Shown: positions 10,264 through 54,591 of the stretch, one piece after another
Numbering within the stretch: position 1 is the first letter of the stretch
Layout: the number at the start of each line of letters is the position of its first letter
Source of the DNA: Alphaproteobacteria bacterium
GTDB taxonomy: Bacteria > Pseudomonadota > Alphaproteobacteria > UBA2966
Length of the DNA stretch: 64,000 nucleotides
Assembly (NCBI GenBank): GCA_964291395.2
Contig: OZ219858.1
Location: 1,216,001-1,280,000, forward strand
Direction: 5' to 3'
Translations under genes and position numbers: made by a program
The notes under the pieces: generated by a model
Seen by the model: the letters and a program-made list of their open reading frames with translations, nothing else
Told to the model about the DNA's origin: nothing
Database searches by the model: none

Positions 10264-11037
10264 TCAGATGACGACCATGCCGCCGTCGACGGAGAGGATG
10301 ACGCCGTTGACCAGACGCGACTCGTCGGAGGCCAGGTACAGCGCCGCGTTGGCGATGTCGATCGGCTGGCCGCTCCCCAGCGGGTGCTGGTGGAGAACGG
10401 TGGTGGTCATCTCGTTGGTCCAGCCCGCCTTCACGGCGACGTTGCGGTCGGTCTCGACGAAGCAGGGCGCGACGGCGTTGCAGCGAATGTTGTCCTTGGC
10501 GTACTCGGCCGCGATGCAGCGGGTGAGCGCCGAAACTCCGCCCTTGGCGGCGGAATAGGAGTGCCGCGGCGGGAAGCCGCGCATCTCGCCGAGGAAGTTC
10601 ATCACCGAGCTCATGTTGATGATCGATCCGCCGCCGGCCTTCTTCAATTCCGGGATACCGAAGCGGCTGCCGAGGAACGTGCCGTAGAGGTCGAGTTGGA
10701 TGCTGCGGTCCCAGGCCTCGATCGGCATTTCGGTCACGGAGTCGTCCGGGGGCGCGGAGCCGCCGGCGCAGTTGTAGAGGACGTTGAGCTGGCCGAAGGC
10801 CTCGACCGTCTCCTTGACGGCACGCTCGACGTCGTCGGGCCGGGTGACGTCGGCCTGGATGGCCACCGCCTTGCCGCCGTCCGCCTTGATCATGCCGGCG
10901 GTCTCGTTGCCCGTCTCCGGATTGATCTCGACGACGCCGACACTGGCGCCTTCTTTCGCAAAGAGGCGGCTCGCCTCGCGCGCGATGCCTGCGCCCGCGC
11001 CCGTGACCAGCGCGACCTTCCCGTCCAGTCTCGCCAT
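10264..11037 (-). CDS. SDR family NAD(P)-dependent oxidoreductase
   Basis: TGAGAGIA, NCAGG, YSAAKGG (YxxxK), IRCNAVAP. Confidence 0.93.
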   Translation of the reverse strand: MARLDGKVALVTGAGAGIAREASRLFAKEGASVGVVEINPETGNETAGMIKADGGKAVAIQADVTRPDDVERAVKETVEAFGQLNVLYNCAGGSAPPDDSVTEMPIEAWDRSIQLDLYGTFLGSRFGIPELKKAGGGSIINMSSVMNFLGEMRGFPPRHSYSAAKGGVSALTRCIAAEYAKDNIRCNAVAPCFVETDRNVAVKAGWTNEMTTTVLHQHPLGSGQPIDIANAALYLASDESRLVNGVILSVDGGMVVI

Positions 11038-11324
11038 GGTCTCCAATCCTCCCCGTATGATCCGTTCTCCGTCGATCATGCCGAATCGACCCGCGGGAGG
11101 TCCAGTAACGACCGACCGTCCCGACGGCCTGTCCGTCCAACGCGGAGTCGGCGAGGATATCCCCGGCCGGAAACAGGTTCCTGATGCTTTGCGGACATCT
11201 GCAATTCGGGGGCGGCGAGGGAGGGGGGCGTTGCCGCGCGTTTACCGGAGGCGGGGGATTCGCTAGGCTTCGCGCCGAAACCGCGACCGCGTTTCAGGCA
11301 ACGTGATATCGGGAGGCGAACGAG

Positions 11325-12710
11325 ATGGCCGTTCAAGAGCTCGACCCCGGCCAACGCGAGCTACGGAAGAAGCCGTTCAGCGGGTACCACTCGCGGGAGA
11401 TCACGGAGCCCGACGCCTTGCTGACGGAGACCGGGCCCCGGACGCCGATGGGCGAGTACTTCCGGCGCTTCTGGCTGCCCATCTGCCTGTCGGATCATCT
11501 CACCGACCTGCCCAAGGCGGTGAAGACGCTCGGTGAGGACCTCGTCGCCTTCCGGGACAAGTCGGGGCGGGCCGGCGTCATGCACCGGCACTGCAGCCAT
11601 CGGGGCACCTCCCTGGAGTACGGCATCGTCTCCGAGCGGGGCATCCGCTGCTGCTATCACGGCTGGCTGTTCGACGTCGACGGCACCATCCTGGAAACAC
11701 CGGGCGAACCGCCCGATTCGAGATTGAAGGACAGTTTCTTCCACGGTGCCTATCCGGCGACCGAGATCCACGGCATGGTCTGGGCCTACATGGGCCCTCC
11801 CGACCTGATCCCGGACAAGCCACACCTCGATTTCTTCGAGATGCCGGGCGTCAGGCTCATCCCCTTCGCCCTGCCGTACGAGAGCAACTGGCTGAACTCG
11901 CAGGAAAACTCCATGGACCCGTTCCACGCCGTGTTCCTGCACGGCACCGACGGCCAGCACTTTCAGAACCCGTCGATCGGCCTTCATCCCAACATCAAGT
12001 GGCGGATCACGGGCGCCGGCAACGGCATGGTCTACATGTCCGTACGCCGTCTCGACGACGACTGGATCTGGGCGCGCATGAACTACTGCTACATGCCCTT
12101 CGAGAGCTACGTGCCGACGACCATCGAACTGCCGAAGCCGACCTACTACAATGCGGCGATCTACTTGCGTCAGCACATCCCGGTCGACGACCTCCGGTCG
12201 ATCCTGTTCGGCTGGCGGGCCTACGGCACGGATCGCACCATCGGCCCCGATCACACCCGGAACGGCTGGAACCTGACGGACGTGGACGGCCAGACTCGGC
12301 GCCCCTCCTACGAAGCGGCGCAACGCAAGGCGGGCGACTTCGAGGCCCAGGGCAGCATCTGGTACGGCGTGCCGCGTCCCGCCATTGAGCACAAGGGAAC
12401 CACCGACACCGGTGTCGTCATGATGCGCCGGCAGCTCCGCGAGATACTCGAGGGCGACGTGCCCGCGGCCTGGCCGGAGCCGGCCAAGGGCCACGGGGAG
12501 ACGCCGAAGGCCAGGAAGATCCTGGCCCAGGACTCGGTGCTCAACGTCAGGCGGCGCGCCGGTCCGGACGAGGATTGGGACCTGCTGACCAGGGTGGGCG
12601 AGGAGATCACCGACGCCGTCGTCGAGGGCAGCGACCGATATGACGGCGAGGAGCGGGTCGGCTGGATCGTCGAGCGGGTCAAGGAAATCGAAGCCCGGCA
12701 CCGGGGCTGA
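11325..12710 (+). CDS. Rieske non-heme iron oxygenase alpha subunit (phthalate dioxygenase/LigX-like clade)
   Basis: HCSHRGTSL...RCCYHGW Rieske motif; ENSMDPFHAVFLH mononuclear Fe motif. Confidence 0.92.
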   Translation: MAVQELDPGQRELRKKPFSGYHSREITEPDALLTETGPRTPMGEYFRRFWLPICLSDHLTDLPKAVKTLGEDLVAFRDKSGRAGVMHRHCSHRGTSLEYGIVSERGIRCCYHGWLFDVDGTILETPGEPPDSRLKDSFFHGAYPATEIHGMVWAYMGPPDLIPDKPHLDFFEMPGVRLIPFALPYESNWLNSQENSMDPFHAVFLHGTDGQHFQNPSIGLHPNIKWRITGAGNGMVYMSVRRLDDDWIWARMNYCYMPFESYVPTTIELPKPTYYNAAIYLRQHIPVDDLRSILFGWRAYGTDRTIGPDHTRNGWNLTDVDGQTRRPSYEAAQRKAGDFEAQGSIWYGVPRPAIEHKGTTDTGVVMMRRQLREILEGDVPAAWPEPAKGHGETPKARKILAQDSVLNVRRRAGPDEDWDLLTRVGEEITDAVVEGSDRYDGEERVGWIVERVKEIEARHRG

Positions 12711-12734
12711 ACCGACGCTTGAGGAGGCGAGTCG

Positions 12735-12824
12735 GTGGACCCGGACGACATCGAGCGCGCGGCGCGCAACCTCCTGGACCACCGCGACTGCGGCCGGAGC
12801 GGGCGCACGTCTGTTCATGTTTAG
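12735..12824 (+). pseudogene. Truncated 5' gene stub, possibly hydratase/FAH-family N-terminus
   Basis: GAGGAGG RBS, GTG start, MDPDDIERAARNLLDHRDCGR, then an abrupt change to lower-GC sequence and a stop. Confidence 0.35.
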
Positions 12825-13038
12825 CAGTCGTTGCCGGCGAACACTTCCTGGTAGCTCATGCTTTGTGCTTCCGACACCGGATGGACTAATTTTACCGGCG
12901 GTCTCTAGAGGGGATACGTGGCGGGATAGCTACAGCCATATGGCATTTTCCATGCTACAAATCCTAATGAAATCAGTCTGTTACCTAGATTCCAATACCT
13001 CCGACATCGGAACAGAAAGCCCCAAAGGAGTCGGAGGC

Positions 13039-13260
13039 TTCGCATTCGAACTCCACGAGGACGGACAGATCGTCGTCAGCCGTGCCGACGCCGAGCATGA
13101 AGATCCGGCGATCGGTGCGTTCCTGGATCTGCTCGCCGGTGATATCCGGGCCGGTCGGCATGTTCGGGCAATTCCGGACGATCTGGCACAGGACATGCTC
13201 GAACATGCGCAGTGTGAAGCGGGACCGGACGAGGACATCGACGGCGACGTCGCCCTCTGA
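13039..13260 (+). pseudogene. PrlF-family antitoxin, 5'-truncated
   Basis: FAFELHEDGQIVVSRADAEHEDPAIGAFLDLLAGDI...DEDIDGDVAL; N-terminal AbrB-type region and natural start are missing; TGATG overlap with the toxin. Confidence 0.7.
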
Positions 13261-13844
13261 TGCGGCGCCACGGATGGACGCTGGTGTTCCACGATTGCCT
13301 CATCGACCAGCTGCGCAAGCTCCGCCACGCAGTCCAACGCGCGCAACGAAGTGGTCCGGCGGGGTTCGCATCCAATGTGAACGTCAAGCTGTTCCGCGCG
13401 CTGAGCCGGTTGATGCTGGAAGTCATCCCGCAGGATCCATCCCGGGGCGAGCACCGCCAGAGTGGCACGCTCGGCCCACGTTGCCGCCATTGGCGGCGCA
13501 CCAGGATCGGCAGACGGTTTCGATTGTTCTTCCGCTACGACGCGAGGGCGAAGGTGATCGTCTACGCGTGGGTCAATGACCAATCCACGCTGCGCTCCTC
13601 GGGGAGCAGAACCGATCCGTACTCGGTCTTCGCCAGGAAGCTCACGCGGGGAAATCCGCCCGACGACTGGGCCTCATTGATGAGGCTTCAAGGCAAGATT
13701 GGCAGGCGGGGAAGTAACCGCCATCAGACTGTGTCGGCCCGCGAAGGGGCGGAAATCCTCCAGAGAATACTCTCGGAATTCGCCACCGGGCGGCCGCGAC
13801 GATTTCCACCGGGCAAGCGGAGAATGCATGCGGCCTCGATTTGA
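13260..13844 (+). CDS. YhaV-family toxin (type II TA RNase) with frameshifted C-terminal run-on
   Basis: MRRHGWTLVFHDC, IPQDP, RFRLFFRYD, VIVYAWVND, DPYSVF, GNPPDDW. The likely original end ASRQDWQAGK* (TAA 13717) is in another frame. Confidence 0.85.
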   Translation: MRRHGWTLVFHDCLIDQLRKLRHAVQRAQRSGPAGFASNVNVKLFRALSRLMLEVIPQDPSRGEHRQSGTLGPRCRHWRRTRIGRRFRLFFRYDARAKVIVYAWVNDQSTLRSSGSRTDPYSVFARKLTRGNPPDDWASLMRLQGKIGRRGSNRHQTVSAREGAEILQRILSEFATGRPRRFPPGKRRMHAASI

Positions 13845-14231: not shown

Positions 14232-15719
14232 TCAACCCGAATGCGCCTGCGGAACCGCCTTGGCGATTTTTTCGATCCCTTCCGAAATAAGGGATTCGCC
14301 GATCACCGAATATCCCAGGCGGATGTGGTTGCGGTTGTTTTTTTCGTCCGAGAAGGTGAAACCGCCGGTCTCGAAGAACACGCCGTCGGCCTCGACCAGA
14401 TCGCGCAGGATGTCCGCATCCGACTCCTCCGGCAGGCGAAGCCAGATGATCGCACCGCCGTATTCCGGTTTGGCCGAAGCCCCCGGAAAATGGAACTCGA
14501 GCGCATCGTGCATCACTTCGCAGCGCTGCTTGTAGATCTTGGTGAGCTTGGCGACGAAGCGATCGAAATACCCCCGCTGGAGGAACAGCGCCACGCTCCG
14601 CTGGTTGTTCACCGGTGGGTGGCGAATGAGATGGTGGCGGAGCGCCCGCGCTTCCCGGATGAACTCCCGATCCGCAACCAGGTAGCCAATGCGCAGCCCG
14701 GGCATCAGGGACTTGGAGAGGGTGCCGATATAGATGACGTTGCCCCAGCCATCGAGGCCCTTCAGCGCCTGCGGCGGGGTCAGGTCGAAGCTGATGTCGG
14801 ATTCGTAGTCGTCCTCAATCACGAACTGGCCGTTCCGCTTGGTGATTTCCAGCAGTTCGAGCTTTCGATCGAGCGGCATTGTGATGGTCGTCGGAAACTG
14901 GTGGGTCGGGGTGACGAACAGACACTTGCAGTCGTTCAGCGCGTCGGACAGCACCAGCCCGTCCCGGTCGACCGGGAGCCGTCGCACACGCACGCGTTCC
15001 ATGCTCGCCATGTTGATGGCATCCGGATAGCCCGGGTCCTCGACACCGATGATTTCCCCTGGCGAGAGCAGCAGCCGGATGGCCAAATAGAGGGCCTGTT
15101 GGCCTCCCACCGTGACCAGGACCTCGTCGGGGTGCGCGACGATGCCGCGTTTCGAGAGTACGCGCTGGATGAGCTGTTCGATCAGCATCTGATCGTCCGT
15201 TTCCGAATAGTCCGCGGCCCAGTTTCTTACCTCGACAACGTTGACGGAATCGCGAACGCACTCGCGCCAGCTTTGGATCGGAAACAGCGACGGGTCTATC
15301 AACCCGCATACGAAGGGATAGCGGTACCGGACCAGGCAATCCGCGGGCTTCGCCACGTGCTGGAGGTCGAAGCTGCGGTCCCTGAAGAACGCGCGGTAGT
15401 CGATCCTGTCGCGCGGAACCGCCAGCTCAGCTGGTGCGTCCGGCTTCAGCGCGTGACCCGGATCGGTGAGAACGTCCGGGTTTATGAAGAAGCCCGAGCG
15501 GTTCCTAGACTCCACGAAGCCGTCCTGCTTGAGCCCGTCATAGGCCAGCGCGACCGTGGTCACGCTCACCTTCAGCTCCGTCGATAGCTGGCGAATCGAC
15601 GGTAGCGGTCGATGCAGCGGGTATTGGCGATTGACGATGCCGATCGCGATCTGGCGCCGGATCTGCTTCTGAATGCTCTCCGGCGACTCACGGTCGATCA
15701 CGATCATGTTCTCGTACAT
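14232..15719 (-). CDS. MocR/GabR-family regulator (GntR HTH + PLP aminotransferase domain), TauR-like
   Basis: LPSIRQLSTELKVSVTTVALAY, VEDPGY, VTPTHQFPT, IEDDYE, YIGTLSKSLMPGLRIGY. Confidence 0.92.
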   Translation of the reverse strand: MYENMIVIDRESPESIQKQIRRQIAIGIVNRQYPLHRPLPSIRQLSTELKVSVTTVALAYDGLKQDGFVESRNRSGFFINPDVLTDPGHALKPDAPAELAVPRDRIDYRAFFRDRSFDLQHVAKPADCLVRYRYPFVCGLIDPSLFPIQSWRECVRDSVNVVEVRNWAADYSETDDQMLIEQLIQRVLSKRGIVAHPDEVLVTVGGQQALYLAIRLLLSPGEIIGVEDPGYPDAINMASMERVRVRRLPVDRDGLVLSDALNDCKCLFVTPTHQFPTTITMPLDRKLELLEITKRNGQFVIEDDYESDISFDLTPPQALKGLDGWGNVIYIGTLSKSLMPGLRIGYLVADREFIREARALRHHLIRHPPVNNQRSVALFLQRGYFDRFVAKLTKIYKQRCEVMHDALEFHFPGASAKPEYGGAIIWLRLPEESDADILRDLVEADGVFFETGGFTFSDEKNNRNHIRLGYSVIGESLISEGIEKIAKAVPQAHSG

Positions 15720-15893
15720 CGGGCAATTTCCCTCGACTGCGGCGATCCAGAGCGCCTCTGTATGTAATTCATTTTCTGACTGTATATAGGAGCCCGTTCG
15801 GACCCGCCATAGGCTCGCTCGCACCCACATCGTGCGAGGAGGCGGACCGTGCGGTCACCGCTTCCTCGGATCGGGAATTTCCGGGGAGCAGGT

Positions 15894-16523
15894 ATGCGGA
15901 GCGACGAACAATATCTCGGGATCGAGCGCTCTTTGCAGCGTGCCTGGGCCAAGGGCGCCGGGCTGATCGACGAGGAGTTCGAGCGGCCGATGATCGCGGT
16001 CGTGAACACCTGCCAGGAATTCTCGCCCGAGAACATCCATCTCCGGCAGGTGGGGGATGCGGTCAAGGCGGGCATCCGCATGGCCGGCGGCACGCCCTGC
16101 GAGTTCAACACCTTCCACGTCACCGACTCAGAGACCTTCGCCTCGGTCGGCATGCGCTACGTACTTCCGAGCCGCGACCTCGTGGCCGACATGATCGAGC
16201 TGATGGTCGAGGGCCACCGCTTCGACGCGATGGTGCTGATCGGCTCGGGAGACAAGGTTGTGCCCGGGATGGTGATGGCGGCCGCCCGCCTCGACCTCCC
16301 CTCCATCCTGCTCTATGGCGGGCCGATTGCGCTCGTGGAGGATGAGGATCCGATTCGGATCGACCTGTCGGAACGCAGACTGGACCTGGACGTGGCGCCA
16401 GCGGTGCTGGAGGAGCGCCGGAGCCGGTACGCGCCCATGCCGCCCCGGGTCGCGCGTAGCTATCTCAAGCACTACGCGGACACCGTGGCGCCCGCATCGG
16501 AAGGGGCGGTGATGCCCCGCTAG
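15894..16523 (+). pseudogene. IlvD/Edd-family dehydratase with large in-frame internal deletion
   Basis: N-terminal part (RPMIAVVN...GMRYVLPSRDLVAD...DKVVPGM...LYGGP) is joined directly to the C-terminal GGPIALVED..IRID...YA..VAPASEGAV; 209 aa versus about 550-600 aa for the family. Confidence 0.85.
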
Positions 16524-16526
16524 GCG

Positions 16527-17641
16527 ATGGACAGCCCAATACACATCGCCGTTGGCGACCGCGCTGAGAGCCCGGCCCCGCCATGCCCGGCCCGGGCGGC
16601 ACACAGCAAGGCCACGGGTAGCGTCGTCACAAACGCCGCGTCGACCGGTATCGGGATCGACCGCAAGCGGTTGAAGGCGCTGGCGCGCCGCAGCAATACG
16701 CCCGGGTTGATCTATCTGACTATCTGGGGTGCCGCGCTGGCGATCACCGGTATCGGGGTCTGGTGCACGCTGGGCACGGTCTGGGTCTGGCCGGCGATGT
16801 TCGTCTTTGGCGTGGCGATGTCGGTCCCGTCCTACGCGCTGAGCCACGAGACCGCACATGGGACGGCGTTCCGGACACGCTGGCTCAACGAGACCGTGTT
16901 CTGGTTCACCTCGCTGCTTTACGGCGAGGAGCCGCTGCACCGGCGCTACACCCACACAAACCACCACACCCACACCTGGTATGTCGGCCTCGACAGCCAG
17001 ATGCCGTTCGACACGCCGCTCGACTTCAGGGCTGGCTCTACGACATCAGCGGCCTCTCGGTGCACCGGTTCCAGGGCCGCGTGCTTTGGCAGCTCGCGAC
17101 CAGGCGCTACACGCGGCTGATGCGCGAGGTGTCGCCGGCCGCCGAGCTGTCCAAGATGACGCGCAACGCACGCCTGTTCGCGCTGGTCTATCTCGGCCTC
17201 GCCGGGGCGATCGCCGCCGGCGTCCCGTGGCCGCTCTGGTTCTACGTGCTGCCGCGGCTGCTCGGCGGCCCGATCATGCTGATGTTCAACATCGTCCAGC
17301 ACGCTGAGATGCAGGAGGACTCGCCCTCGATCGTCGAGAGCACGCGGAGCTTCCGTACGGATCGGGTGGGGCGGTTCCTCTACCTCAACATGAACAACCA
17401 CATCGAGCACCACCTCTACCCGCAGGTGCCGTTCTATTCGCTGCCGGCGCTGCACGGAGAGGTGGCAGACCAGACCCCGGAACCCGATCCCGGCTTCTGG
17501 CGCACCAATCTCGATCTCCTCTGGGTGGTGATCCGGCGGTCGCTCGGGCGCCGCACCAAGGCGGCCTGGATCCGCCAGGCGCCGCACATGATCACCGAGG
17601 GCGGCGGCTATTCGACGATCGCAAAGGCGACGATGCAGTGA
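16527..17641 (+). pseudogene. MocD-like membrane di-iron oxygenase (fatty acid desaturase family), frameshift in G-run at 17029-17031
   Basis: His boxes HETAH, HTNHH and NNHIEHHLYP are split over two frames; adding one G restores DFRGWLYD. Confidence 0.8.
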
Positions 17642-18480
17642 AGCGCAAGCGCATCTACAGCTATGGTGGCAAGTCGGCAACGCGAAATTTTACCGTCGCC
17701 GACATGATCGCGCTCAAGGGTAAGGCGAGGCTCTGCCAGACCTGCCCGGCCACCGAGGAAGAGGCGGCGGCCTGCGAAGCGGTCGGCATCGACGTGCTGA
17801 ACACCTCGGATGCCGACTACCCGGCGGTTCGCGCCGGCGCGCCCGAGACGTTCACCATCGCCGACCTGCCCATGACGGCGCACCAGACGCCGGACGACAT
17901 CCTGCGCGCGGCGGTCAGAGCGGCCGAGGCCGGGGCCGATGCGGTCTACACGCCGCGCAGCCTGCAAACCGTCGAGATGCTGGCGCGGGAGGGTCTGGCG
18001 GTGCAGGGCCATCTCGGTCTGGTACCCAGGCTTTCCACCTGGCGCGGCGGGCTCCGCATCGTCGGCAAGACGGCGGAAGAAGCCCTCGAGCTCTTGGAGG
18101 ATTTTCGCCGGCTCGAGGATGCCGGCGCCTACGCGGCCGAGGTCGAGTGCGTGGCCGCCGAGGCGCTGGCCGCGATCGCCCCGCGATCGAGGCTGGTAAC
18201 CCACTCGATCGGCGCCGGTCCGGCGGGCGACGTGATCTTCATGTTTCTGGTCGACATCTGCGGCGAGCTGGAACGGTCCCCAGGCCACGCCCGGGCATTT
18301 GCTGACCTGCGGTCGATCCGTCAGCAGATCGTTGCCGAGCGTCGGCGCGCGCTCGGCGAGTACCGGGCGGCGGTGACAGACGGCAGTTATCCGGACGCCG
18401 AGATCTCGGTGTCCATGCTGGTGGGCGAGCACGAAAAGCTGGTCGAGGCGCTGGATGCGCGCCCGGTCTTCGCGTCGTGA
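17638..18480 (+). CDS. PanB-like hydroxymethyltransferase/aldolase, divergent subfamily
   Basis: VRAGAP..FTIADLP, QGHLGLVP, GKTAEEA, EVECV, SIGAG, C-terminal V.DGSYP; GTGA overlap with the desaturase. Confidence 0.82.
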   Translation: MKRKRIYSYGGKSATRNFTVADMIALKGKARLCQTCPATEEEAAACEAVGIDVLNTSDADYPAVRAGAPETFTIADLPMTAHQTPDDILRAAVRAAEAGADAVYTPRSLQTVEMLAREGLAVQGHLGLVPRLSTWRGGLRIVGKTAEEALELLEDFRRLEDAGAYAAEVECVAAEALAAIAPRSRLVTHSIGAGPAGDVIFMFLVDICGELERSPGHARAFADLRSIRQQIVAERRRALGEYRAAVTDGSYPDAEISVSMLVGEHEKLVEALDARPVFAS

Positions 18481-18490
18481 GGGTGTGACG

Positions 18491-18835
18491 ATGGCCGATT
18501 GGATTCACGCCTGCGCCTGTGACGAGATCGACGAAGAGGACCTCATCCGCTGGGACCACGGGGGCCGAACCTACGCGATCTACAACGCCGAGGATGAGTT
18601 CTACTGCACCGACGGCATGTGCACCCACAAGGCGACGCATCTCGAGCAAGGGCTGCTCACGGGACACGTCATCGAGTGCCCGCTGCACCAGGGCCGGTTC
18701 GACATCCGCTCCGGCAAGGTGGTCTCGCCGCCGCCCTGCAGGGAACTCAACACCTACCCGGTCAAGACCGAGAACGGACAGGTCTATGTGCAGGTCGGTT
18801 ACCGCAAGGAAGAGGAGAACTGGGAATCGTCCTGA
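18491..18835 (+). CDS. MocE-like Rieske [2Fe-2S] ferredoxin
   Basis: DEIDEEDLIRWDH, CTHKATHL...IECPLHQGRFD. Confidence 0.9.
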   Translation: MADWIHACACDEIDEEDLIRWDHGGRTYAIYNAEDEFYCTDGMCTHKATHLEQGLLTGHVIECPLHQGRFDIRSGKVVSPPPCRELNTYPVKTENGQVYVQVGYRKEEENWESS

Positions 18836-18865
18836 ATTCGTGTGTCTTAAAACGAGGAAACAACT

Positions 18866-19879
18866 ATGCAAAACTCGCTGAGAAAATGGCTAATCCACGG
18901 TCTGGCTGCCACGGCAATTGCGGCTGCCGGAGCGGCGATGCCGGCACAGGCGAAGGAGAAGTTCATCTTCGCCCACGCCATGAACACCGATCACGTCTTC
19001 CACGCGCTGTCCGAACGCTTCATCTCGGAGCTGAAGGGCAACAAGGCGATCTCGATCGCCTATCACCCGGGCGGCGATCTGGGCGACTGGACGTCGCTGT
19101 TCGAGCAGTCGATGCAGGGCGTCGTTCCGATGACCCTGACCTGGGCGTCGTCCGATTTCGACAAGCGTCTGGACCTCATCTATCTCGGCTACATCGTGTC
19201 CAACTGGAAGGATGCGAAGAAGCTCTATGGACCGGGTGCCGACATGCTCGGGGTCTACAACGACATGCTCGGCGATCTCGGCCTGCACGCGGTCGGCATC
19301 ATCCCGACCGATTTCGGCTCTGTGGTGATCCGCAAGGGCGTCGGCAAGCTGCCGCTTAACTACCCGGGCGACCCGAAGGGTATGAAGATTCGGGTACCAG
19401 GGCTTTCGATCGCCGTCGACCGTTTCAACAGCCTGGGCTTCGCGGCCGTACCGATCCCGCTCTCCGAGGTCCATACCGCGCTGCAGCTCGGCACCGTGGA
19501 TGCGCGTTCGTTCTCGACCGCTGTCGAGACCTACACGCTGCGCGACGTGCTGGAGGCAAACATCCTCACCAACGACTATTTCGAGGTTGCCTTCTGGCTG
19601 GTCAACAAGAAGTGGTGGGACGGGCTCCCGGCCGACGTGCGCGGCGCGTTGCAGGGTGCGGCCGACAACACCATCGCCTGGTCCTGGGAGGAAGCGGAGC
19701 GCAAGAGCAACGAGTTTCTGCAAAAGGCGCGCGACGCCGGCATTAAGGTCGTCGAACTGAACGACGCGCAGATGAGTGCTGCCAAGCAGATCGTCTACGA
19801 CAAGGAGTGGCCAAAGATGGAGTCCGTCGTCGGTAAGGCGACAATGGACAAGATCAGGAAGATCGTCGGTGTCAAGTAG
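18866..19879 (+). CDS. dctP: TRAP transporter substrate-binding protein
   Basis: Signal peptide ending AQA, KGMKIRVP (conserved Arg), EVHTALQLGTVDA. Confidence 0.9.
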   Translation: MQNSLRKWLIHGLAATAIAAAGAAMPAQAKEKFIFAHAMNTDHVFHALSERFISELKGNKAISIAYHPGGDLGDWTSLFEQSMQGVVPMTLTWASSDFDKRLDLIYLGYIVSNWKDAKKLYGPGADMLGVYNDMLGDLGLHAVGIIPTDFGSVVIRKGVGKLPLNYPGDPKGMKIRVPGLSIAVDRFNSLGFAAVPIPLSEVHTALQLGTVDARSFSTAVETYTLRDVLEANILTNDYFEVAFWLVNKKWWDGLPADVRGALQGAADNTIAWSWEEAERKSNEFLQKARDAGIKVVELNDAQMSAAKQIVYDKEWPKMESVVGKATMDKIRKIVGVK

Positions 19880-19884
19880 TGTGA

Positions 19885-19930
19885 ACCGGGACGTGTCCCG
19901 GTAAACCACCCGGGCGCCTCGGCGCCCGGG
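19885..19930 (+). other. Two intergenic hairpins after dctP, probably mRNA-stabilising
   Basis: ACCGGGA-cgtg-TCCCGGT and CCCGGGCGCC-tc-GGCGCCCGGG; no U-tract. Confidence 0.55.
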
Positions 19931-19956
19931 CAGTCCATTGAGCACGAGGCGCGCAG

Positions 19957-20601
19957 ATGGACAGGAAATCGGAACAGCACCCGCGCCCGCCGGTCGGCGC
20001 GGACTCCTTTATCTACGATCCTGAGCTCGCATCCTCGGAGCCGCCGCCGCATCTGACAGCGATTCCGGAGGGCGCGCTGGCGGAGAGACTGCGGTTGCTT
20101 ATCGCCGTCGAGGCGGTTTTCGAGCGGATATTTTACGTCTTCATCATCGCGTTCGGGCTCTGTCTCGCTGCCCTGATGTTCACCCAGGTGGTGCTCCGAT
20201 ACGTCTTCGCATCGCCCTTCGTCGGCATCGAGGAGCTCTCGCTCCTGTTCGGCGCTTGGTTCTACTTCCTCGGCATCGCCTATGTAACGCGGAACGGCGA
20301 GCACATACATGGCGGCATCCTGACCATGGTGGTGGCGAACCGGAACGCGATACGCGCGGTCCGGCTCGCCATGACCGTGCTCGGCATCGCGGCCTGCGTG
20401 GTGTTCGGTTACTTCGCCATCAACTATGCCCTGTTTGAGATCCAGACCGGCCGGCTCAGCTCCTACATGCGCTGGCCCAAGGGCTGGTGGTCGGCGTCCC
20501 TCATCATCGGCTTCATCGGCACCGCGTTGTACATGGTGCTCCAGGCCGTGAACCAGGCGGTCGACCTCGTCGTCTACCTGCGCGAGGAGACGGAGGTATA
20601 G
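19957..20601 (+). CDS. dctQ: TRAP transporter small permease
   Basis: Four hydrophobic segments, QVVLRYVF, EELS, GEHI. Confidence 0.88.
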   Translation: MDRKSEQHPRPPVGADSFIYDPELASSEPPPHLTAIPEGALAERLRLLIAVEAVFERIFYVFIIAFGLCLAALMFTQVVLRYVFASPFVGIEELSLLFGAWFYFLGIAYVTRNGEHIHGGILTMVVANRNAIRAVRLAMTVLGIAACVVFGYFAINYALFEIQTGRLSSYMRWPKGWWSASLIIGFIGTALYMVLQAVNQAVDLVVYLREETEV

Positions 20602-20603
20602 CC

Positions 20604-21908
20604 ATGCTGGCCTTCGTGATCTCCCTTGCGCTCATCGTCTTGCTGTTGCTCGCGGAGATGCCGATCGCCTTCGCCTTCGGGATCGGCGCGCTGGTCTTCG
20701 GCGTCTGGTCGGGATCGGACGTGTCATTCCTCATCCCCTACGCTTACCAGACCACCTCAAGCTTCGCCCTGCTCGCCTTGCCCCTGTTCGTCATGGCCGG
20801 GACGCTGATGGCACAGGGCGGGATCTCGGACCGCCTTCTCGCCTTCGTCAACGCCTTCATCGGCCGGCTCAAGGGCGGGCTCGGGGCTGTGACGGTGGTG
20901 ACCTGTGCGCTGTTCGGGGCGATCTCCGGCTCGTCGTCGGCCGCCATCGCGGCGATCGGCCAGATCATGATCCCGCGTATGATCAAGGAGGGATATCCGG
21001 CCGGCCACGCCACCGCGCTGGTCGCCTGCTCGTCGGTCCTCGCGTTGATGATTCCGCCCTCGATCCCGATGATCGTCTTCGCGGTGACCGGGGGGATTTC
21101 CGTAGGTGCGGCCTTCCTCTCGACCGTGATCCCGGGCGCCATCCTGACCCTCGTCTATGTCGGTCTTAACTTTCTGTTCCTGAGAAAGGTCGACACGATC
21201 ACCGTCGAGGAGCGGATTTCTCTGCCACAGGCGGTGAGGCGGATCGGCCGGACCGGCAAGGAAGCCTTCTGGGCGCTGCTGATGCCGGTCATCATCCTCG
21301 GGACCATCTACTCCGGCATCGCCACGCCGACCGAGGCCGCCGCCATTGCGCTGGTCTTCGCGCTTGCCGTTGGGTTCCTGATCTATCGCGGGCTCACGTT
21401 CAGCAACTTCCCCTCGACCATGGCCCGCGCCGCGATCACCACCGGATCGATCGTCGCCGTGCTGTTCTTCCTGTTCGTGATGAGCCGCGCGATGATCCTC
21501 CAGCAGGTGCCGAAGGAGGTCGCCGACACGCTGGTCGCGTTGACCGAGAACCGGATCCTCGCGCTGCTGATCATCAACGTCATTCTGCTGCTGATCGGCA
21601 TGATCGTCGACGACGTGTCCGGCAGCGTCCTTGCCGCAATCGTCCTGTTGCCGGTGGCAACGGAGATCGGTGTGCATCCCATCCACTTCGCGGCCATCGT
21701 CGGCACCAATCTCGGCCTGGGCAACGTTTCGCCGCCCTGCGCGCCGATGCTCTACATGGCGGCCGGGGTGAGCAAGCTCACGCTGGACAAGTACTTCATG
21801 CCGACCATGAAACTCCTGACGTTCGGCCACCTTCCGATGGTACTCATCGTCACATTCATCCCCGAACTCTCGCTCACCCTGCCGAGGATGATCCTGGGGA
21901 TCGCGTAG
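20604..21908 (+). CDS. dctM: TRAP transporter large permease
   Basis: LALPLFVMAG, GAISGSS, IPPSIP, ATPTEAA, HPIHF, SPP. Confidence 0.93.
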   Translation: MLAFVISLALIVLLLLAEMPIAFAFGIGALVFGVWSGSDVSFLIPYAYQTTSSFALLALPLFVMAGTLMAQGGISDRLLAFVNAFIGRLKGGLGAVTVVTCALFGAISGSSSAAIAAIGQIMIPRMIKEGYPAGHATALVACSSVLALMIPPSIPMIVFAVTGGISVGAAFLSTVIPGAILTLVYVGLNFLFLRKVDTITVEERISLPQAVRRIGRTGKEAFWALLMPVIILGTIYSGIATPTEAAAIALVFALAVGFLIYRGLTFSNFPSTMARAAITTGSIVAVLFFLFVMSRAMILQQVPKEVADTLVALTENRILALLIINVILLLIGMIVDDVSGSVLAAIVLLPVATEIGVHPIHFAAIVGTNLGLGNVSPPCAPMLYMAAGVSKLTLDKYFMPTMKLLTFGHLPMVLIVTFIPELSLTLPRMILGIA

Positions 21909-22126: not shown

Positions 22127-23404
22127 TCAGAAGAAGACGTAGGAGCGGACCACGACGTTCTTGCGGCAGGGCGCGTCGGCGGGCGCGGTCGGGTCGATGC
22201 AGGCCGTGTGGAAGGACCAGCGCGACACGGAGCCGTCGGTGACGGAGTCGTAGCACTTGAGCATCGAGACTTCGGTCGGTTTCTGCCGGGGAAACCAGTA
22301 CCACTCGTGGTCGGGGCGGTAGGTGAAGCGGGTGGTCTCACCGACGCGGTCGTCGTAGACGCGATAGTTCGTGATGTAGGGCTGGTCGGCGAAAGAGGGC
22401 CAGGCGCACAGCACGAAGGGGAACTGACCCACGGTCTCCATCGGCTTGGCAAGGTTGAGCGACATGAAGCGCCGCGACATCTTCGCTTCGGCCTCCGCCT
22501 CCGTGTAATGCTGCTCGCGCCCGAAGTTCCGCAGATTCATCGTCAGCAGCTCGCGGCAGCGCACGCGGCCGCTGTTGTCGTTCAGGTCGTTGTGCACGAG
22601 GTTGACGTAACTGGCGTTCACGCCCGGGTTCTTGGCGTCCTGGTCTTCCGTGCGGTCGCCCTGATAATCCTTGTCGAAGACGTCGTGGTTGTAGACGAGC
22701 GCATCGGTGGCATCCGGGAAAAACTCCAGAAGGAGCTTCTCGATCTCCGGGTAGAACACACGCTCCACCTCCGCCGAGTCGTAGAAGTTCCTGCAACTGG
22801 ACTTGAAGTGGGCCAGGGAGACGCCAAGCTTGTCCATACATTCGGGACTGTCGACCGATAGACCCGGATAGTACTCTCCGATGCGCCGCCCATCGCGCAC
22901 CACCTGCGGGAAGTAGAGACTGCGATCCCGGTTGTACTCTTCGGCCTCGCCCAACAGCTTCGCCTCGGCCTCACGCGCCGGATCCTGCCAGAGCGAGTTG
23001 GACGGCACGATGATGTAGGACGGTCGCTCGTAGACGGTGTAGCGCAGCGGAAGCGCCAAGCCGCCTTCAGGGGCTTCGATCTTGTTCGCCAGAATATAGT
23101 CGAGGCAGTCCTCATACTCACGGAATCCAAGGCCCCACTTGGTCTCGATGGGTCCCTGGGGCGTACTTTCGATCCAATCGATAAACGCTTTCGCATGCCC
23201 TTCGGCAATCTGGTCGAGCGCCGCCTCGATCGCCGCGCCTGTTCCCGCATCTCCGTCCCGATCGAATGACATGTAGGACAATCCGCCATTCGCTGCGATG
23301 GGCGGGGGCTGTCCTTCCGTGAGTTGGAGGGGCGGCACATAGACCGATGAACATGCCTCCTCATCCGTGGCAACGTGATCCTCGATGGTTTCGTGAGGTT
23401 TCAA
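22127..23404 (-). CDS. CmcJ/NvfI-family oxidoreductase with extra N-terminal domain
   Basis: VHND, HEWYWFP, MLKCYDS, FHTACIDPTAPADAPCRKNVVVR; TTG start after GGAGG inferred. Confidence 0.75.
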   Translation of the reverse strand: MKPHETIEDHVATDEEACSSVYVPPLQLTEGQPPPIAANGGLSYMSFDRDGDAGTGAAIEAALDQIAEGHAKAFIDWIESTPQGPIETKWGLGFREYEDCLDYILANKIEAPEGGLALPLRYTVYERPSYIIVPSNSLWQDPAREAEAKLLGEAEEYNRDRSLYFPQVVRDGRRIGEYYPGLSVDSPECMDKLGVSLAHFKSSCRNFYDSAEVERVFYPEIEKLLLEFFPDATDALVYNHDVFDKDYQGDRTEDQDAKNPGVNASYVNLVHNDLNDNSGRVRCRELLTMNLRNFGREQHYTEAEAEAKMSRRFMSLNLAKPMETVGQFPFVLCAWPSFADQPYITNYRVYDDRVGETTRFTYRPDHEWYWFPRQKPTEVSMLKCYDSVTDGSVSRWSFHTACIDPTAPADAPCRKNVVVRSYVFF

Positions 23405-23752
23405 AGCATGTCCTCCGGTCAAAGACCCGTCGTCACGATACATAGGATAGGCAAATTCCGAGACTCGAGCCCGATCGAGGTGATTGTATCGCAGTCCTTC
23501 AGTACGTGTAGCCGCGTAGCCGCGCTTTGGGCAAGATTGCGTCGGTCACCAATCTTCTGTTGCCGCATCTATCCGCTCCAAAAGGCCTACCCCAACCTCG
23601 TCGGGACCGGCCGCCTCGAGGCGAACGCCGGGCGGCTCTCGCGGGTCCGGACGTGAGCCGATCCGAGCGATCGTTGATCTCCCATAACCTGTTGATATAA
23701 AAGAGTTTTGAATCGAACTTTGCGATAGCTGAACGCGGGAGCGCAGATCATT

Positions 23753-24595: not shown

Positions 24596-25762
24596 CTAAA
24601 AGCTCGCGCCGGCGATGCCGATGGTGGATTGTCCGGTGCCGAAAAGTTCCGTGTAGGTGGCCTTGCCGTTGGCGACGGCGAGGATCTCCTCGTAGATGCG
24701 CCGGCCGCCTTCCTCGATCGAGATCTCTCCGGTCAGGATGCCGCTCACCGAGACGTCCAGGTCGTCCGGCGCGTTCCCGGCCGTCGCAGGGTTGCCGCTG
24801 ATCTTGACCGTGGGGACGAACGGATGCGCCGAGGGCTGTCCGAGGCCGGTGTTGAACCCGATGATCTGGGCCCCGCCGGCCGCCAGGCCCGTCATCGACT
24901 CGCAGGCCGGCGACGGCGTGCTCATGAAATAAAAGCCGGGCGGGTCGGGGATGACCGGGTCGCAGTACCCCACGACGCCCTGCAGGGGCTTGCTGCCGCC
25001 TTTCTTGACCGCGCCGAGGGACTTTTCCGCAAGCGTCGTCAGGCCGCCCTCGATGTTGTCGGCCGAAGGATTGCCGCGGCGGATGTCGGGGACACCCGCC
25101 CGGCGGGCCAGCTCCTCCATCTCGGCGATGGCGTCGATGATATCGGAGGCCGCCTTGTCGTCGACGGCACGCTCGGCCATGAGGTGTTCGGCCCCCATGA
25201 TCTCGGCGGTCTCCGACAGCACGACCGAGCCGCCGGCCTCCATGAGCAGGTCCGCGGCGTGGCCGAGGGCGGGATTCCCGGCGATGCCGCTCGAGAAGTC
25301 GGAGCCGCCGCACTCGACCCCCATGACGAGACTGGAGAGCGGCTGCTCGCTGCGCTGTACGCCGGATACCTTCTTGGCCATCTTCGCGGCGATCAGCGTG
25401 CCCTGTTCGATGGTGCGGAGCGTGCCGCCGATGTCCTGATAGACGACACACTCCACGTCCTTGCCCGCCGCGGCGATGGGTTCGGCGAACGTCTCGGCGG
25501 AGACACCGTGGAGCGTCACCAGGATCACGCCGCCGAGATTCGGGTTCGTGGCCATGCCATGGATCGCCTTGAGACGCATTTCGTGGTTGAGCCCGATCAG
25601 CTTGCGGCCGAAGAGGTCGGTGACGAGCTCGGTGCCGCGGACGTTCCCGGCGATCTTGCGGGAGATGCCGTTGACGTTGTCCATCAGCGCGATGACGCCG
25701 ACGGTGTTCCGGATGCCGGCGGACCCGTCGCTGCGCGGATAACCATGGAACATGGGGCTCAC
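24596..25762 (-). CDS. UxaA/GarD/SuyB-family dehydratase large subunit
   Basis: GYPRSDGSAGIRN, NPNLGG, ECGGSDFSSG, LSETAE, NIEGGLTTLAEKSLGAVKKGG. Confidence 0.9.
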   Translation of the reverse strand: MSPMFHGYPRSDGSAGIRNTVGVIALMDNVNGISRKIAGNVRGTELVTDLFGRKLIGLNHEMRLKAIHGMATNPNLGGVILVTLHGVSAETFAEPIAAAGKDVECVVYQDIGGTLRTIEQGTLIAAKMAKKVSGVQRSEQPLSSLVMGVECGGSDFSSGIAGNPALGHAADLLMEAGGSVVLSETAEIMGAEHLMAERAVDDKAASDIIDAIAEMEELARRAGVPDIRRGNPSADNIEGGLTTLAEKSLGAVKKGGSKPLQGVVGYCDPVIPDPPGFYFMSTPSPACESMTGLAAGGAQIIGFNTGLGQPSAHPFVPTVKISGNPATAGNAPDDLDVSVSGILTGEISIEEGGRRIYEEILAVANGKATYTELFGTGQSTIGIAGASF

Positions 25763-25813
25763 GCCTCCCGCGCCGTTCGTTCCGCAACGAATGGAACCAT
25801 CGCTCTCACCAGC

Positions 25814-26095
25814 CTAGTCTACGACGTTGTGGGTGTGGACGTGTTGGCCCGGCGCGACCGCGGTGGACGCCTTGCCGATGACCTCGCCGTACTTGCGGAC
25901 GGCATCGCCGCTGGCGATCTCCTCGAGCGCGATCTTGTGGCCGCGCGGGATGGCGTCGGCGGCCGTTACGGTGATGACGTCCGGCCCCGACTTCACCGAG
26001 ACATCCGCGCCGGCCTCGACGGCGTGAAGGCAGGTCGCGACGTTGTCGCTCGTGTCGACGGCGATGGCATCGATCGCGGCGCCGGCGGAGGTCAC
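25814..26095 (-). CDS. UxaA/SuyA-type SAF-domain small subunit
   Basis: DNVAT, IPRGHKIAL, VRKYGEVIG, GQHVHTHNV. Confidence 0.88.
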   Translation of the reverse strand: MTSAGAAIDAIAVDTSDNVATCLHAVEAGADVSVKSGPDVITVTAADAIPRGHKIALEEIASGDAVRKYGEVIGKASTAVAPGQHVHTHNVVD

Positions 26096-26217
26096 GCGAC
26101 CGACGCTCCGGATTCCGCGGCGAGGCTGTCCCGCGTCCAGGCCCGAGGCTCCCCCACCGACCGGCGCAGGATCCCGGTGGGCTGGTCCCGGGCCTCCAGT
26201 TCACGATCGACGGTCAT
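26092..26217 (-). pseudogene. Collapsed gene remnant; 5' part resembles a TauD/TfdA dioxygenase N-terminus
   Basis: GAGGAG RBS and a 41-aa ORF MTVDRELEARDQPTGILRRSVGEPRAWTRDSLAAESGASVA ending in a GTGA overlap with the SAF gene. Confidence 0.45.
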
Positions 26218-26259
26218 GGTCCGCTCCTCGCGATCGTCGTGAGCCGGCAGAACGGGTCC

Positions 26260-27603
26260 TCAATGCATCCTTGCGCCCGGAGGGCAAAGTCGCTCCGCGG
26301 GATGCGCGAACCCGGTTTGAGCCATCTCTTCCAGCAGCATAGCGATGACGTGCTTTCGCCCCAAGCGCTGCGCCGAATCGGCCAGGATCTGCGTAAACAG
26401 ATTGCGCTGGGCGTGGCTGCCGCCGATCTGCCACAGGCTGTGCCGCGCCGGCAGCAGGTTTCCAAGCACCGCTTCATGGTCGCCGCGCTGGTGCGCGATG
26501 GCACCCTCCGCCGCCGGCAGGACCGCCGAGCGAACGCGGGCCGCGTTGTTGGTCTCGTCCGTGGACGCGTAGCCCCGCAGGGCCGTCAGGTAAGCTTCCA
26601 GGGCCGCGTCGCGGCCGGCCGCCGCCAAGGCGGTCGCGACATGGGCGCTGGAGAGCGGCGCGGCATGGTTGCCGATACGATCTTCGGCGAGATCGGCTAC
26701 CGCCTCCCAACGGTCGCCGACGTCGTACCCGTACATGTCGAGATGCTTCAACAGGTCGACGGCATTCTGAAAATCGCCGTAATGACCGGGATTGGCCCTG
26801 ATCAGCGGTGCCTCGGGATTGTGGACGTCGCGGTCGTAGATCTCCAGGACCGTGCCGAACTCACCCCGCAGCAGGTGGAACAGGCTGCGGTGCCACCACA
26901 AATGATGCACGAAGTTGTTGAGTTCCGCCCAATGGTCCTTGAGGCCATCGAGCCAGGCGATGCCGTCCTCGTGGCGTCCCTGCATCTCCATGACATGGGC
27001 GACCGCGTGCGCGCCCCAGCCGTTCGTGGGGTCGCGCTCCACCGCGTCACGCCCGTACCGTTCGGCGTCGGCGTAGAGGCCGTTCTCCTCGCAGCCGAAG
27101 GCGCGCATCGCCTGGAACGCGCTGAAACCGGGCACGTCGGTGGACCAGGCCGGTGCGCCGCGCTCGACGATATTGCGCATCCACACGGACTCGCCGATCC
27201 AGAACAACTCGAACTGGGCCAGGCGATGGGCTAGCAGGTCGCGAGGATTAGCCGCCAGGATCATCTCGTAATGGCTGACCGCATCCAGGGTGCGGCCGCG
27301 GATCAAGGCCGAGAGCGCCGCCAGGTAGCCCTTTTCCCGCTCGGTGGCGCCGCCGCTCGCCGCTTCCGCGGCATCCAATTCGGCTTGCGCTTCCCGATAG
27401 CGATGCGGCAGTCGGACGCCGACGATGAGCAGGCCCTTCATGACGCGTGCCAGAACGCAGCCGGGGTCCGCCTCCAGCGCCGCGTTCACGTGAGCCATGG
27501 TGTCCAACCTGTGACTGACGAGACTCGCGGCCGCGCGGCTCAACGCCTCGGCGGCGCCGGCGCTCGACGTCGTCAGTTCCAGGCCGCGGTCGTCGCGTTG
27601 CAC
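26260..27603 (-). CDS. TTC38-like tetratricopeptide repeat protein
   Basis: PRDLLA, AFGCEENG, WGAHAVAHVMEMQGR, HLWWHRSLFHL, IGGSHAQR. Confidence 0.85.
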   Translation of the reverse strand: MQRDDRGLELTTSSAGAAEALSRAAASLVSHRLDTMAHVNAALEADPGCVLARVMKGLLIVGVRLPHRYREAQAELDAAEAASGGATEREKGYLAALSALIRGRTLDAVSHYEMILAANPRDLLAHRLAQFELFWIGESVWMRNIVERGAPAWSTDVPGFSAFQAMRAFGCEENGLYADAERYGRDAVERDPTNGWGAHAVAHVMEMQGRHEDGIAWLDGLKDHWAELNNFVHHLWWHRSLFHLLRGEFGTVLEIYDRDVHNPEAPLIRANPGHYGDFQNAVDLLKHLDMYGYDVGDRWEAVADLAEDRIGNHAAPLSSAHVATALAAAGRDAALEAYLTALRGYASTDETNNAARVRSAVLPAAEGAIAHQRGDHEAVLGNLLPARHSLWQIGGSHAQRNLFTQILADSAQRLGRKHVIAMLLEEMAQTGFAHPAERLCPPGARMH

Positions 27604-27617
27604 GATTCTGGCTCGGA

Positions 27618-27730
27618 CTAGACGGCGAGTCCCGCCTCGGCGTCCTTGAACCGCCGCGCAACGAATTCCTGCCGCTCCATGCCGCGGTAGGCGTCACCCT
27701 CCAACATGGCCTCGGTCAGGCGCGCGTCCC
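27618..27730 (-). pseudogene. Probable 3' remnant of a deleted gene
   Basis: Coding-like frame DARLTEAMLEGDAYRGMERQEFVARRFKDAEAGLAV* fills the gap between the Rieske stop and TTC38 start. Confidence 0.3.
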
Positions 27731-29146: not shown

Positions 29147-29347
29147 GTCGATTCCTCTCGCAGAAGACCGATGGAGCGCGAGTGCAACGATTTCGCGAAG
29201 CCGGGTCGGACCTTCGGCCCCCGAGGGCCGCCGCAACCGTCTCGAGGAGGATGATATCCGCTCGGCAAGGGTCATGCCTAGCGTGTTTCCAGTTCGGTTG
29301 AAACCGCCGGAGGGCGACTCGGCGACGTCTCCGAATCCACCCCCTTA

Positions 29348-29385
29348 CTCCCTTCCCCTCGCGGGGGAGGGGCGGGCGGGAGTGT
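29348..29385. repeat. Alphaproteobacterial-type palindromic extragenic element
   Basis: CTCCCTTCCCCTCGCGGGGGAGGGGCGGGCGGGAGTGT resembles the CCCTCCCC-N-GGGGAGGG-N-GGGGTGGGG repeats; single copy in this window. Confidence 0.5.
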
Positions 29386-29411
29386 GTTCGGACTGGTTCC
29401 GAGGGCAGTGC

Positions 29412-30665: not shown

Positions 30666-30738
30666 GGGCCCTCGGCGTCGTGATCGGCAGGACGTTCGGA
30701 AGCACTCCCTTCGAAGTCTTGCTTGCGGAGACGACCGG

Positions 30739-53425: not shown

Positions 53426-53559
53426 CCGTCTTCCTCGCTCGAGGGCGGCGTCTCGCCCCACGTATGACAACATACATTGCTTCGGGAACGCTGTCCCGTG
53501 GCAGTGAGGATTGCGGACTATCGCTCTACGCGGTCCCGCCTTTCCATCTCCCTTCTATT

Positions 53560-54561: not shown

Positions 54562-54591
54562 GTGCCGGCCCCTCATCTAGACGCTCCGACC

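Follow-up and report, generated by a model that had tools for sequence, protein, structure and literature searches.

Positions 14232-21908 of a 64,000-nucleotide stretch of DNA from an alphaproteobacterium of the UBA2966 lineage (contig OZ219858.1, positions 1,216,001 to 1,280,000; this whole stretch is referred to as the window) carry eight genes that are best explained as a copy, inactivated recently, of a conserved catabolic operon that has spread by horizontal transfer. The genes encode a MocR-type regulator, an IlvD-type dehydratase, a MocD-like membrane di-iron oxygenase, a PanB-like protein (here called PanBL), a MocE-family Rieske ferredoxin, and the DctP, DctQ and DctM components of a tripartite ATP-independent periplasmic (TRAP) transporter. 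These components are of known kinds; their combination and the role of PanBL have no description in the literature searched. PanBL is not an ordinary PanB, and its pairing with an oxygenase is nearly universal among the loci compared. We propose, with a probability of roughly 0.45, that in intact copies a methyl group is hydroxylated and PanBL then cleaves the hydroxymethyl group so formed off a 2-oxo acid in a retro-aldol reaction.

Conservation and decay of the operon

The window is chromosomal, has a G+C content of ~65% and contains ordinary housekeeping genes that appear mostly full length. Pfam and NCBIfam scans bore out the layout given in a preliminary description made from the sequence alone, in which a MocR regulator diverges from IlvD-like, MocD-like, PanB-like, MocE-like and dctPQM genes, and all eight genes were found where that description had placed them. 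The regulator gene (GntR plus Aminotran_1_2; 14232-15830, minus strand) appears intact. On the plus strand follow a remnant of an IlvD/DHAD-type dehydratase gene (15849-16523; 224 aa), the FA_desaturase-family oxygenase gene (16527-17641, read in two frames, 16527-17120 and 16763-17641), the intact PanBL gene (17638-18480; 280 aa), the ferredoxin gene (18455-18835, with a likely start at 18491), and the genes for the solute-binding protein DctP (18866-19879; Pfam DctP, 113 bits), the small permease DctQ (19957-20601; Pfam DctQ, full length relative to its orthologues) and the large permease DctM (20487-21908; Pfam DctM, 308 bits; TIGR00786, 329 against a cutoff of 268). The start of DctM likely lies near 20595, and orthologues in many loci align only from residue ~29-40. 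The three Dct components are adjacent and each matches its own family, as in a TRAP transporter. A scan of the window for promoters and terminators gave no signal above shuffled controls.

This arrangement is not peculiar to the window. A large protein collection contains 719 relatives of PanBL; among the 120 listed, ~100 share 75-91% identity and are 278-286 aa long. In a scan of one genome per species, 104 stretches matched; 90 of them code for relatives, of which 80 were retained together with their 10-kb flanks. The gene order of the window recurs around the PanB-like homologue in 33 of these 80 loci (L002-L034, referred to as type A), all of them metagenome-assembled to judge by the record titles. 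PanBL, the ferredoxin, DctP, DctQ, DctM and the desaturase are each encoded in 33/33 type-A loci, IlvD in 30 (two of the misses are contig ends, and L027 truly lacks the gene) and MocR in 26. Such an order is far beyond chance. The closest intact locus available for comparison, L002, is 88-90% identical to the window at the DNA level across the cluster, and homology stops precisely at the stop codon of MocR on one side and 14 bp past that of DctM on the other. Thus the cluster is a discrete unit placed in different surroundings, and the genes form one unit, as the tightly coupled run of the preliminary description implied.

A maximum-likelihood tree built from 86 of 87 sequences (L075 was too short and was left out) separates all PanBL from three canonical PanB proteins with a support of 100. 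The type-A PanBL form a single clade of 34 sequences (Shimodaira-Hasegawa-like approximate likelihood ratio test, SH-aLRT, 99) with members from Paracoccaceae, Rhodospirillales, Arenicellales, Ectothiorhodospiraceae and one Binatota record; this span of Alpha- and Gammaproteobacteria together with Binatota points to horizontal transfer. Context groups were assigned to the tree coarsely, from the neighbouring genes. A single isolate record carries two cluster types, one of type A (L019) and one of type B (L055). Eight related loci (among L003-L011 and L023) have a transaldolase/FSA-family gene adjoining MocR, and upstream of MocR in the same set are found an unannotated 148-aa open reading frame (ORF; four loci) and an SDR gene (five loci); none of the three is present in the window.

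Comparison with L002 reveals how the window copy has decayed, and agrees with the earlier view of it as eroded. The ilvD-like gene lacks ~1026 bp in frame, with the junction at 16317-16326; the remnant keeps ortholog residues 12-155 and 496-562 of 562 (ILVD_EDD_N 1-120 of 316 and ILV_EDD_C 129-191 of 191), and residues ~156-495 are gone. At the deletion end points L002 contains the 10-bp near-repeats GGCGGGCCGA and GGCGGACCGA, which fits a slipped deletion. The oxygenase gene lacks 1 bp at ~17027, where the window reads TTCA-GGGC and L002 reads TTCAAGGGC, and its two frames match ortholog residues 5-144 and 143-348. An identical 1-bp loss is present in L004 (L004:9345-9430; window 17020-17035), though the L004 PanBL is only 83% identical, and relatives read AAGGG or AGGGG at this site. 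The shared loss and these short runs suggest either a slippage hotspot or a sequencing or assembly artefact, which leaves the frameshift uncertain. The other six genes are full length relative to their orthologues. The ratio of nonsynonymous to synonymous substitution rates (dN/dS) against L002 is 0.03-0.25 for all gene pieces (0.08 for MocR and 0.11 for PanBL), at a dS of 0.26-0.46, which indicates purifying selection and recent damage. Since the core of the dehydratase is deleted, the pathway cannot run in the window copy.

Independent lesions are also found in relatives. L017 and L018 differ in the internal deletions that their IlvD genes bear; L004 has a damaged desaturase, as does L019 through a ~3 kb insert; MocR carries a frameshift or is split in L002, L005 and L032; and DctM has a frameshift in L032. 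Lesions arising independently in the same operon of several genomes suggest that selection on the pathway has been relaxed repeatedly.

The dehydratase was characterized through its intact orthologues. The window remnant fails the ilvD equivalog TIGR00110 (197.6 against a cutoff of 618.15), and the intact L023 orthologue passes it (628.1) and lies far below the cutoffs for arabinonate, xylonate and phosphogluconate (Edd) dehydratases. A sugar-acid dehydratase was therefore rejected as the first-choice identity, and the methylated (amino)sugar acid favored as substrate in the preliminary description is unsupported; a branched 2,3-dihydroxy acid is at least as likely as a sugar acid. By sequence, the enzyme looks like a specialised, tightly conserved IlvD subfamily of uptake clusters. 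An IlvD paralogue on an Ensifer adhaerens plasmid (L001:8871-10637) is 77% identical to the cluster dehydratase, with a part 85.7% identical to the window at the DNA level. It belongs to a transport cluster of quite another make-up, in which a Liv-type ABC transporter is accompanied by a GntR regulator, a HAD hydrolase and an ornithine-cyclodeaminase-family gene.

The MocR homologue aligns in a single frame with ortholog residues 5-496 of 499, and its true start is probably near 15731. It has the GntR plus aminotransferase architecture, passes the PdxR equivalog marginally (331 against a cutoff of 320) and falls below the rhizopine MocR equivalog NF052281 (239.7 against 650). The region between the regulator and the operon contains a direct repeat, CTGTA-N17-CTGTA (15758-15784, plus strand), as a candidate MocR operator; this is the one match in 64 kb, against 0.01 expected. 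Of the 26 related loci with both MocR and IlvD, 25 carry a relaxed form of the repeat in the corresponding intergenic region, the L019 variant escaping the pattern, and L020 and L024 have one extra match each. Five of the seven loci without MocR (L007, L013, L031, L033 and L034) have no match, and the other two (L006 and L027) match elsewhere. Direct repeats are a known operator type of MocR regulators, including those at rhizopine moc promoters (PMC10107442).

PanBL and its oxygenase partners

PanBL scores 96.8 bits against the panB equivalog TIGR00222, far short of the cutoff of 207.55, and matches only profile positions 70-261 (69-258 in Pfam Pantoate_transf), with its N-terminal 60 residues outside the match. 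Among 39 family members scanned, 2 pass the equivalog cutoff and 37 are far below it. A whole-library search with PanBL returned 2572 relatives at E <= 0.001, of which only 61 reach E <= 1e-30; the counterpart in L002 is 91% identical. Canonical panB loci fetched for comparison adjoin panC, and panC, panD and panE were found neither in the window nor beside the cluster. One family member, P0106, is a fusion of a truncated PanBL with a Rieske domain; other long proteins look like chimeric gene calls and were not used.

At the predicted active site PanBL resembles PanB only in part. PanBL lacks a 21-residue segment of Escherichia coli PanB, and YTPR replaces the KIEG of PanB in 80/80 marine PanBL (with F for Y in 11). 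At the positions of E. coli PanB D45, D84, H136 and E181 the window protein keeps the same residues, and A, Y and P stand in place of S46, K112 and E114; in E. coli PanB we take these positions to include Mg ligands and residues of catalysis. All 86 rows of the alignment agree at the H136 and E181 positions. Every PanBL of types A, B, C and D has Asp at the D45 position, and at the D84 position Asp occurs in 34/34 type-A PanBL and 0/49 other PanBL. Both Asp positions are lost in rhizobial PanBL. Among solved structures the best sequence match is PanB itself (1m3u; E 3.9e-20). A structure model predicted from 16 sequences is of moderate confidence (predicted local distance difference test, pLDDT, 62.6), so no residue-level geometry is claimed from it; its best structural match is also 1m3u (template modelling score, TM, 0.62), followed by other members of the isocitrate-lyase/PEP-mutase superfamily.

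Neighbouring genes were counted by tblastn within 5 kb of PanBL in the 80 loci. An oxygenase gene is present at this distance in 73/80, and the oxygenases belong to five gene clusters: FA_desaturase (54), two of FA_hydroxylase (15 and 6), Rieske oxygenase (8) and PhyH (5). In three of the exceptions (L065, L068 and L071) PhyH and FA_hydroxylase genes lie just past the TRAP genes, another (L051) retains a desaturase remnant, and L069, L072 and L079 are unexplained. The front-end genes that accompany this pair vary by clade. The window type has IlvD, TRAP and MocR; another clade has LysR, a class II aldolase-like protein and a DddP-like M24 enzyme (305 bits against a cutoff of 600); and further clades have a GbcA-like Rieske oxygenase, PhyH with DUF6166 and TRAP, or IclR with a pipecolate/sarcosine-oxidase-like flavoenzyme. 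Two loci of Arenicellales or gammaproteobacterial origin (L033, 14500-17000, and L034) contain a second FA_hydroxylase-PanBL pair directly after dctM. An Aliisedimentitalea plasmid (L083:6356-11573) carries a related desaturase with a ferredoxin and an M24 enzyme, without a PanB-like gene, and the pair adjoins a 2-hydroxyacid dehydrogenase and a thiamine diphosphate (ThDP)-dependent 2-oxoacid decarboxylase; the chromosome of the same species has a type-C PanBL cluster (L047).

The His boxes of the oxygenase are conserved in 56 relatives. In the window the 1-bp loss puts boxes 1-2 and box 3 in separate frames, with a sequencing error possible. The ferredoxin passes TIGR02377 narrowly (137.1 against 136.15) and contains the Rieske C-x-H and C-x-x-H motifs. 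A tblastn search with a representative of the reductase cluster found no ferredoxin reductase in the 64 kb window, in accordance with the earlier remark that no MocF-like reductase is visible; such a gene follows the cluster in 6/80 loci, including two of type A. Nine Paracoccaceae loci (e.g., L014:14308-15024) share a conserved 238-aa ORF downstream of dctM, which may not be a real gene; as a candidate for the missing reductase it was rejected, having no Pfam match even at E = 1.

Related genes are abundant on rhizobial plasmids. The desaturase orthologue matched 288 plasmid records at ~33% identity, including 146 from Rhizobium and 85 from Sinorhizobium, and in three loci (Rhizobium sp. Kim5, R. 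etli Mim1 and S. meliloti pSymB) mocD-, mocE- and mocF-like genes are followed by PanBL. The Kim5 and window PanBL share 41% identity across 266 residues, and both belong to a single clade distinct from PanB. In S. meliloti 1021, SM_b20817-20820 are annotated as LacI, mocD, mocE and mocF (PMC11387232). R. etli CFN42 carries a second 'panB', RHE_PE00443, on plasmid p42e, equated here with the rhizobial plasmid loci through its product name and its place on the plasmid rather than by comparing sequences. According to PMC3082293, a panB mutant of this strain stays auxotrophic, constitutive expression of RHE_PE00443 gives no panB complementation (reported as data not shown), and the protein keeps only 5/12 invariant active-site residues. 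The failed complementation by this relative and the low equivalog score of PanBL both answer a question raised by the preliminary description, namely whether the PanB-like gene is an ordinary panB, in the negative.

Proposed pathway and alternatives

In intact copies, the MocR-type regulator would bind the CTGTA direct repeat and control the divergent operon, the TRAP system would import an organic acid, and the DHAD-type dehydratase would convert a 2,3-dihydroxy acid to a 3-branched 2-oxo acid. The MocD-like membrane di-iron monooxygenase, fed by the MocE-type Rieske ferredoxin, would then hydroxylate a methyl group, and PanBL would excise the hydroxymethyl group by reversed PanB chemistry, that is, by a metal-assisted retro-aldol reaction. 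The one-carbon (C1) unit would leave as formaldehyde or 5,10-methylene-tetrahydrofolate, and a shorter 2-oxo acid would remain. Reversal of the PanB reaction is plausible on several grounds. Both Asp positions are retained only in the PanBL clade that adjoins a 2-oxo-acid-forming dehydratase. The enzyme is paired with hydroxylases whose products would be stable alcohols, and the desaturase-ferredoxin pair of L083 stands beside a 2-hydroxyacid dehydrogenase and a ThDP 2-oxoacid decarboxylase. Canonical PanB can also work folate-free, as a class II aldolase acting on formaldehyde and 2-oxo acids (PMC7610986).

Several observations weigh against this pathway. The rhizobial clade has lost both Asp residues yet keeps its oxygenase partner, which fits a shared role other than metal-dependent aldol cleavage. 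The K112 and E114 positions are Y and P in PanBL and the 21-residue segment is absent, so its chemistry may differ from that of PanB; moreover, the PanB residue roles are presumed ones and the structure model reaches only a moderate pLDDT. MocD itself is a proposed O-demethylase, and the product of such an enzyme would shed formaldehyde unaided. Amines are the usual signal of MocR-type regulators, a preference that is not accounted for by a plain dihydroxy acid, and the regulator in the window marginally passes the PdxR model. As to the substrate, the best match of DctP among solved TRAP binding proteins reaches only 72 bits, so no ligand can be transferred.

Some of these points would be accommodated if the oxygenase were an O-, N- or S-demethylase, as proposed for MocDEF, with PanBL passing the hydroxymethyl group or formaldehyde to tetrahydrofolate and the dehydratase acting on the demethylated backbone. 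We consider this unlikely, though far from negligible. It would suit the three rhizobial plasmids in which PanBL follows mocDEF-like genes, next to LacI and in one case a sugar-type ABC transporter, and it would suit the loss of both Asp residues there, together with the 5/12 active-site residues of RHE_PE00443 (PMC3082293); some PanBL loci also contain GbcA-like Rieske oxygenases, sarcosine/pipecolate-oxidase-like flavoenzymes and betaine-type regulators. An enzyme of this kind would also be notable, since the condensation of formaldehyde with tetrahydrofolate is slow in vivo when spontaneous and has no known enzyme (PMC7073904). However, a hemiacetal or carbinolamine collapses unaided, which makes a dedicated partner in 73/80 loci less expected, and type-A PanBL keeps both PanB Asp positions and adjoins a 2-oxo-acid-forming enzyme. 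To our knowledge, the well-studied oxidative demethylase clusters do not include a PanB-like gene, which also counts against such a role.

Two further explanations treat the PanB relationship more literally. The cluster might make or salvage pantoate or a pantoate-like block from an imported precursor, with IlvD and PanB as consecutive steps; the two families do stand side by side, the IlvD orthologue passes the ilvD equivalog and the regulator marginally passes a vitamin-B6 regulator model. This is nevertheless improbable, given that panC, panD and panE were not found nearby, that 37 of the 39 family members scanned are far below the panB cutoff and that the rhizobial relative does not support pantothenate synthesis (PMC3082293). 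The contexts of PanBL paralogues also vary and include LysR, GntR, IclR and LacI regulators as well as uptake systems, one genome holds two cluster types (L019 and L055), and repeated independent decay is unlike an essential vitamin pathway. That an ordinary panB and ilvD simply lie beside unrelated genes, with no functional unit, is scarcely credible: although public annotation calls the rhizobial relatives '3-methyl-2-oxobutanoate hydroxymethyltransferase', the order is kept in 33 loci across phyla with sharp cluster boundaries, the split between PanBL and PanB has a support of 100 and PanBL reaches 96.8 where 207.55 is required.

Retro-aldol excision after methyl hydroxylation thus remains our preferred pathway, and the more general idea of the preliminary description, oxidative demethylation with C1 transfer, survives with partial support. 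Tentatively, PanBL and a membrane di-iron hydroxylase may constitute a general two-enzyme module for methyl excision, in which an unactivated methyl group would be hydroxylated and removed as a folate-bound or free C1 unit. Varied front ends (a DHAD-type dehydratase, a DddP-like M24 enzyme, a class II aldolase-like protein or an amino-acid oxidase) would adapt it to different substrates in marine bacteria and rhizobia. If so, the module would represent an undescribed activity, either a catabolic C-C cleavage by reverse PanB chemistry or an enzymatic step from formaldehyde to tetrahydrofolate. Removal of methyl groups as C1 units would open a new route for the breakdown of branched or methylated organic acids that feeds the folate C1 pool, and could also supply the missing enzymatic link between formaldehyde and tetrahydrofolate. 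In either case, a family annotated as 'panB' seems to act otherwise, both in marine Proteobacteria and in model rhizobia, where its genes lie on large plasmids, and PanBL genes are unfit as evidence of pantothenate synthesis in genome annotation. Among the carriers of the module, S. meliloti and R. etli are amenable to genetics, and sister clusters are present in cultured roseobacters.

Surroundings and relationship to known systems

In the window, a PrlF-like antitoxin and YhaV-family toxin pair (12640-13844; Pfam 29.7 and 170.7 bits) lies directly outside the MocR-end boundary, where the homology to L002 stops. Upstream of it and outside the conserved cluster are a short-chain dehydrogenase gene (10264-11079, minus strand) and a Rieske-domain oxygenase gene (11325-12710), whose product resembles 4beta-methylsterol monooxygenase only weakly (48.6 bits; cutoff 600). 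Just past dctM is a CmcJ/NvfI-family oxidoreductase gene (22127-23443, minus strand; 134 bits; cutoff 80) that none of the 80 related loci has. A catabolic-looking run at 24596-33296 includes a two-piece altronate/galactarate dehydratase, with the SAF domain and the catalytic part in separate ORFs, a LigXa-like Rieske oxygenase, an AllG-family gene, a Crp-type regulator and an FMO-like monooxygenase. Farther downstream, ~1.4 kb between ftsH and an amidohydrolase gene (53474-54918) contains no ORF passing the GC3 (third-codon-position G+C) filter.

Full-text literature searches that covered few subscription journals and no supplements turned up neither this set of genes nor any catabolic PanB-like enzyme, in agreement with the earlier statement that no described pathway has this combination. 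Among the closest known arrangements is the uncharacterised one of S. meliloti SM_b20817-20820 with the next gene and R. etli RHE_PE00443, which likewise places a desaturase-type oxygenase, a MocE ferredoxin and a PanB-like gene side by side. What sets the rhizobial cluster apart is its LacI regulator, its MocF-like reductase, the sugar ABC transporter found in one case and the absence of both IlvD and TRAP genes; its PanB-like protein also lacks both Asp positions.

The rhizopine mocR/mocDEF system of Sinorhizobium meliloti L5-30 and Rhizobium leguminosarum shares with the window a MocR-type regulator divergent from an FA_desaturase-type oxygenase and a MocE-family ferredoxin. There, the mocD promoter is under MocR control through direct repeats (PMC10107442), and the window has a direct repeat, the candidate operator, in the same place. 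Unlike the rhizopine system, the window cluster lacks mocA, mocB and mocC, and the window contains no mocF; its regulator fails the rhizopine MocR equivalog, its uptake system is TRAP rather than ABC, and IlvD-like and PanB-like genes are added.

At the level of single enzymes, PanBL shares with PanB (TIGR00222, PF02548) the fold family, with 1m3u as the best match in both sequence and structure, and the residues at D45, D84, H136 and E181 in the window protein. It differs in its equivalog score, its unmatched N-terminal 60 residues, the absent 21-residue segment, the change of KIEG to YTPR and the lack of pan genes nearby. In sterol C4-demethylation, an FA_hydroxylase-family oxidase takes a C-methyl group next to a ketone to the carboxylate, which is lost as CO2. 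By analogy, a membrane di-iron enzyme may here too oxidise a C-methyl group for removal beside a carbonyl, although the pathway proposed for the cluster involves a single hydroxylation followed by removal of the hydroxymethyl group, and the sequence kinship is confined to the oxygenase superfamily.

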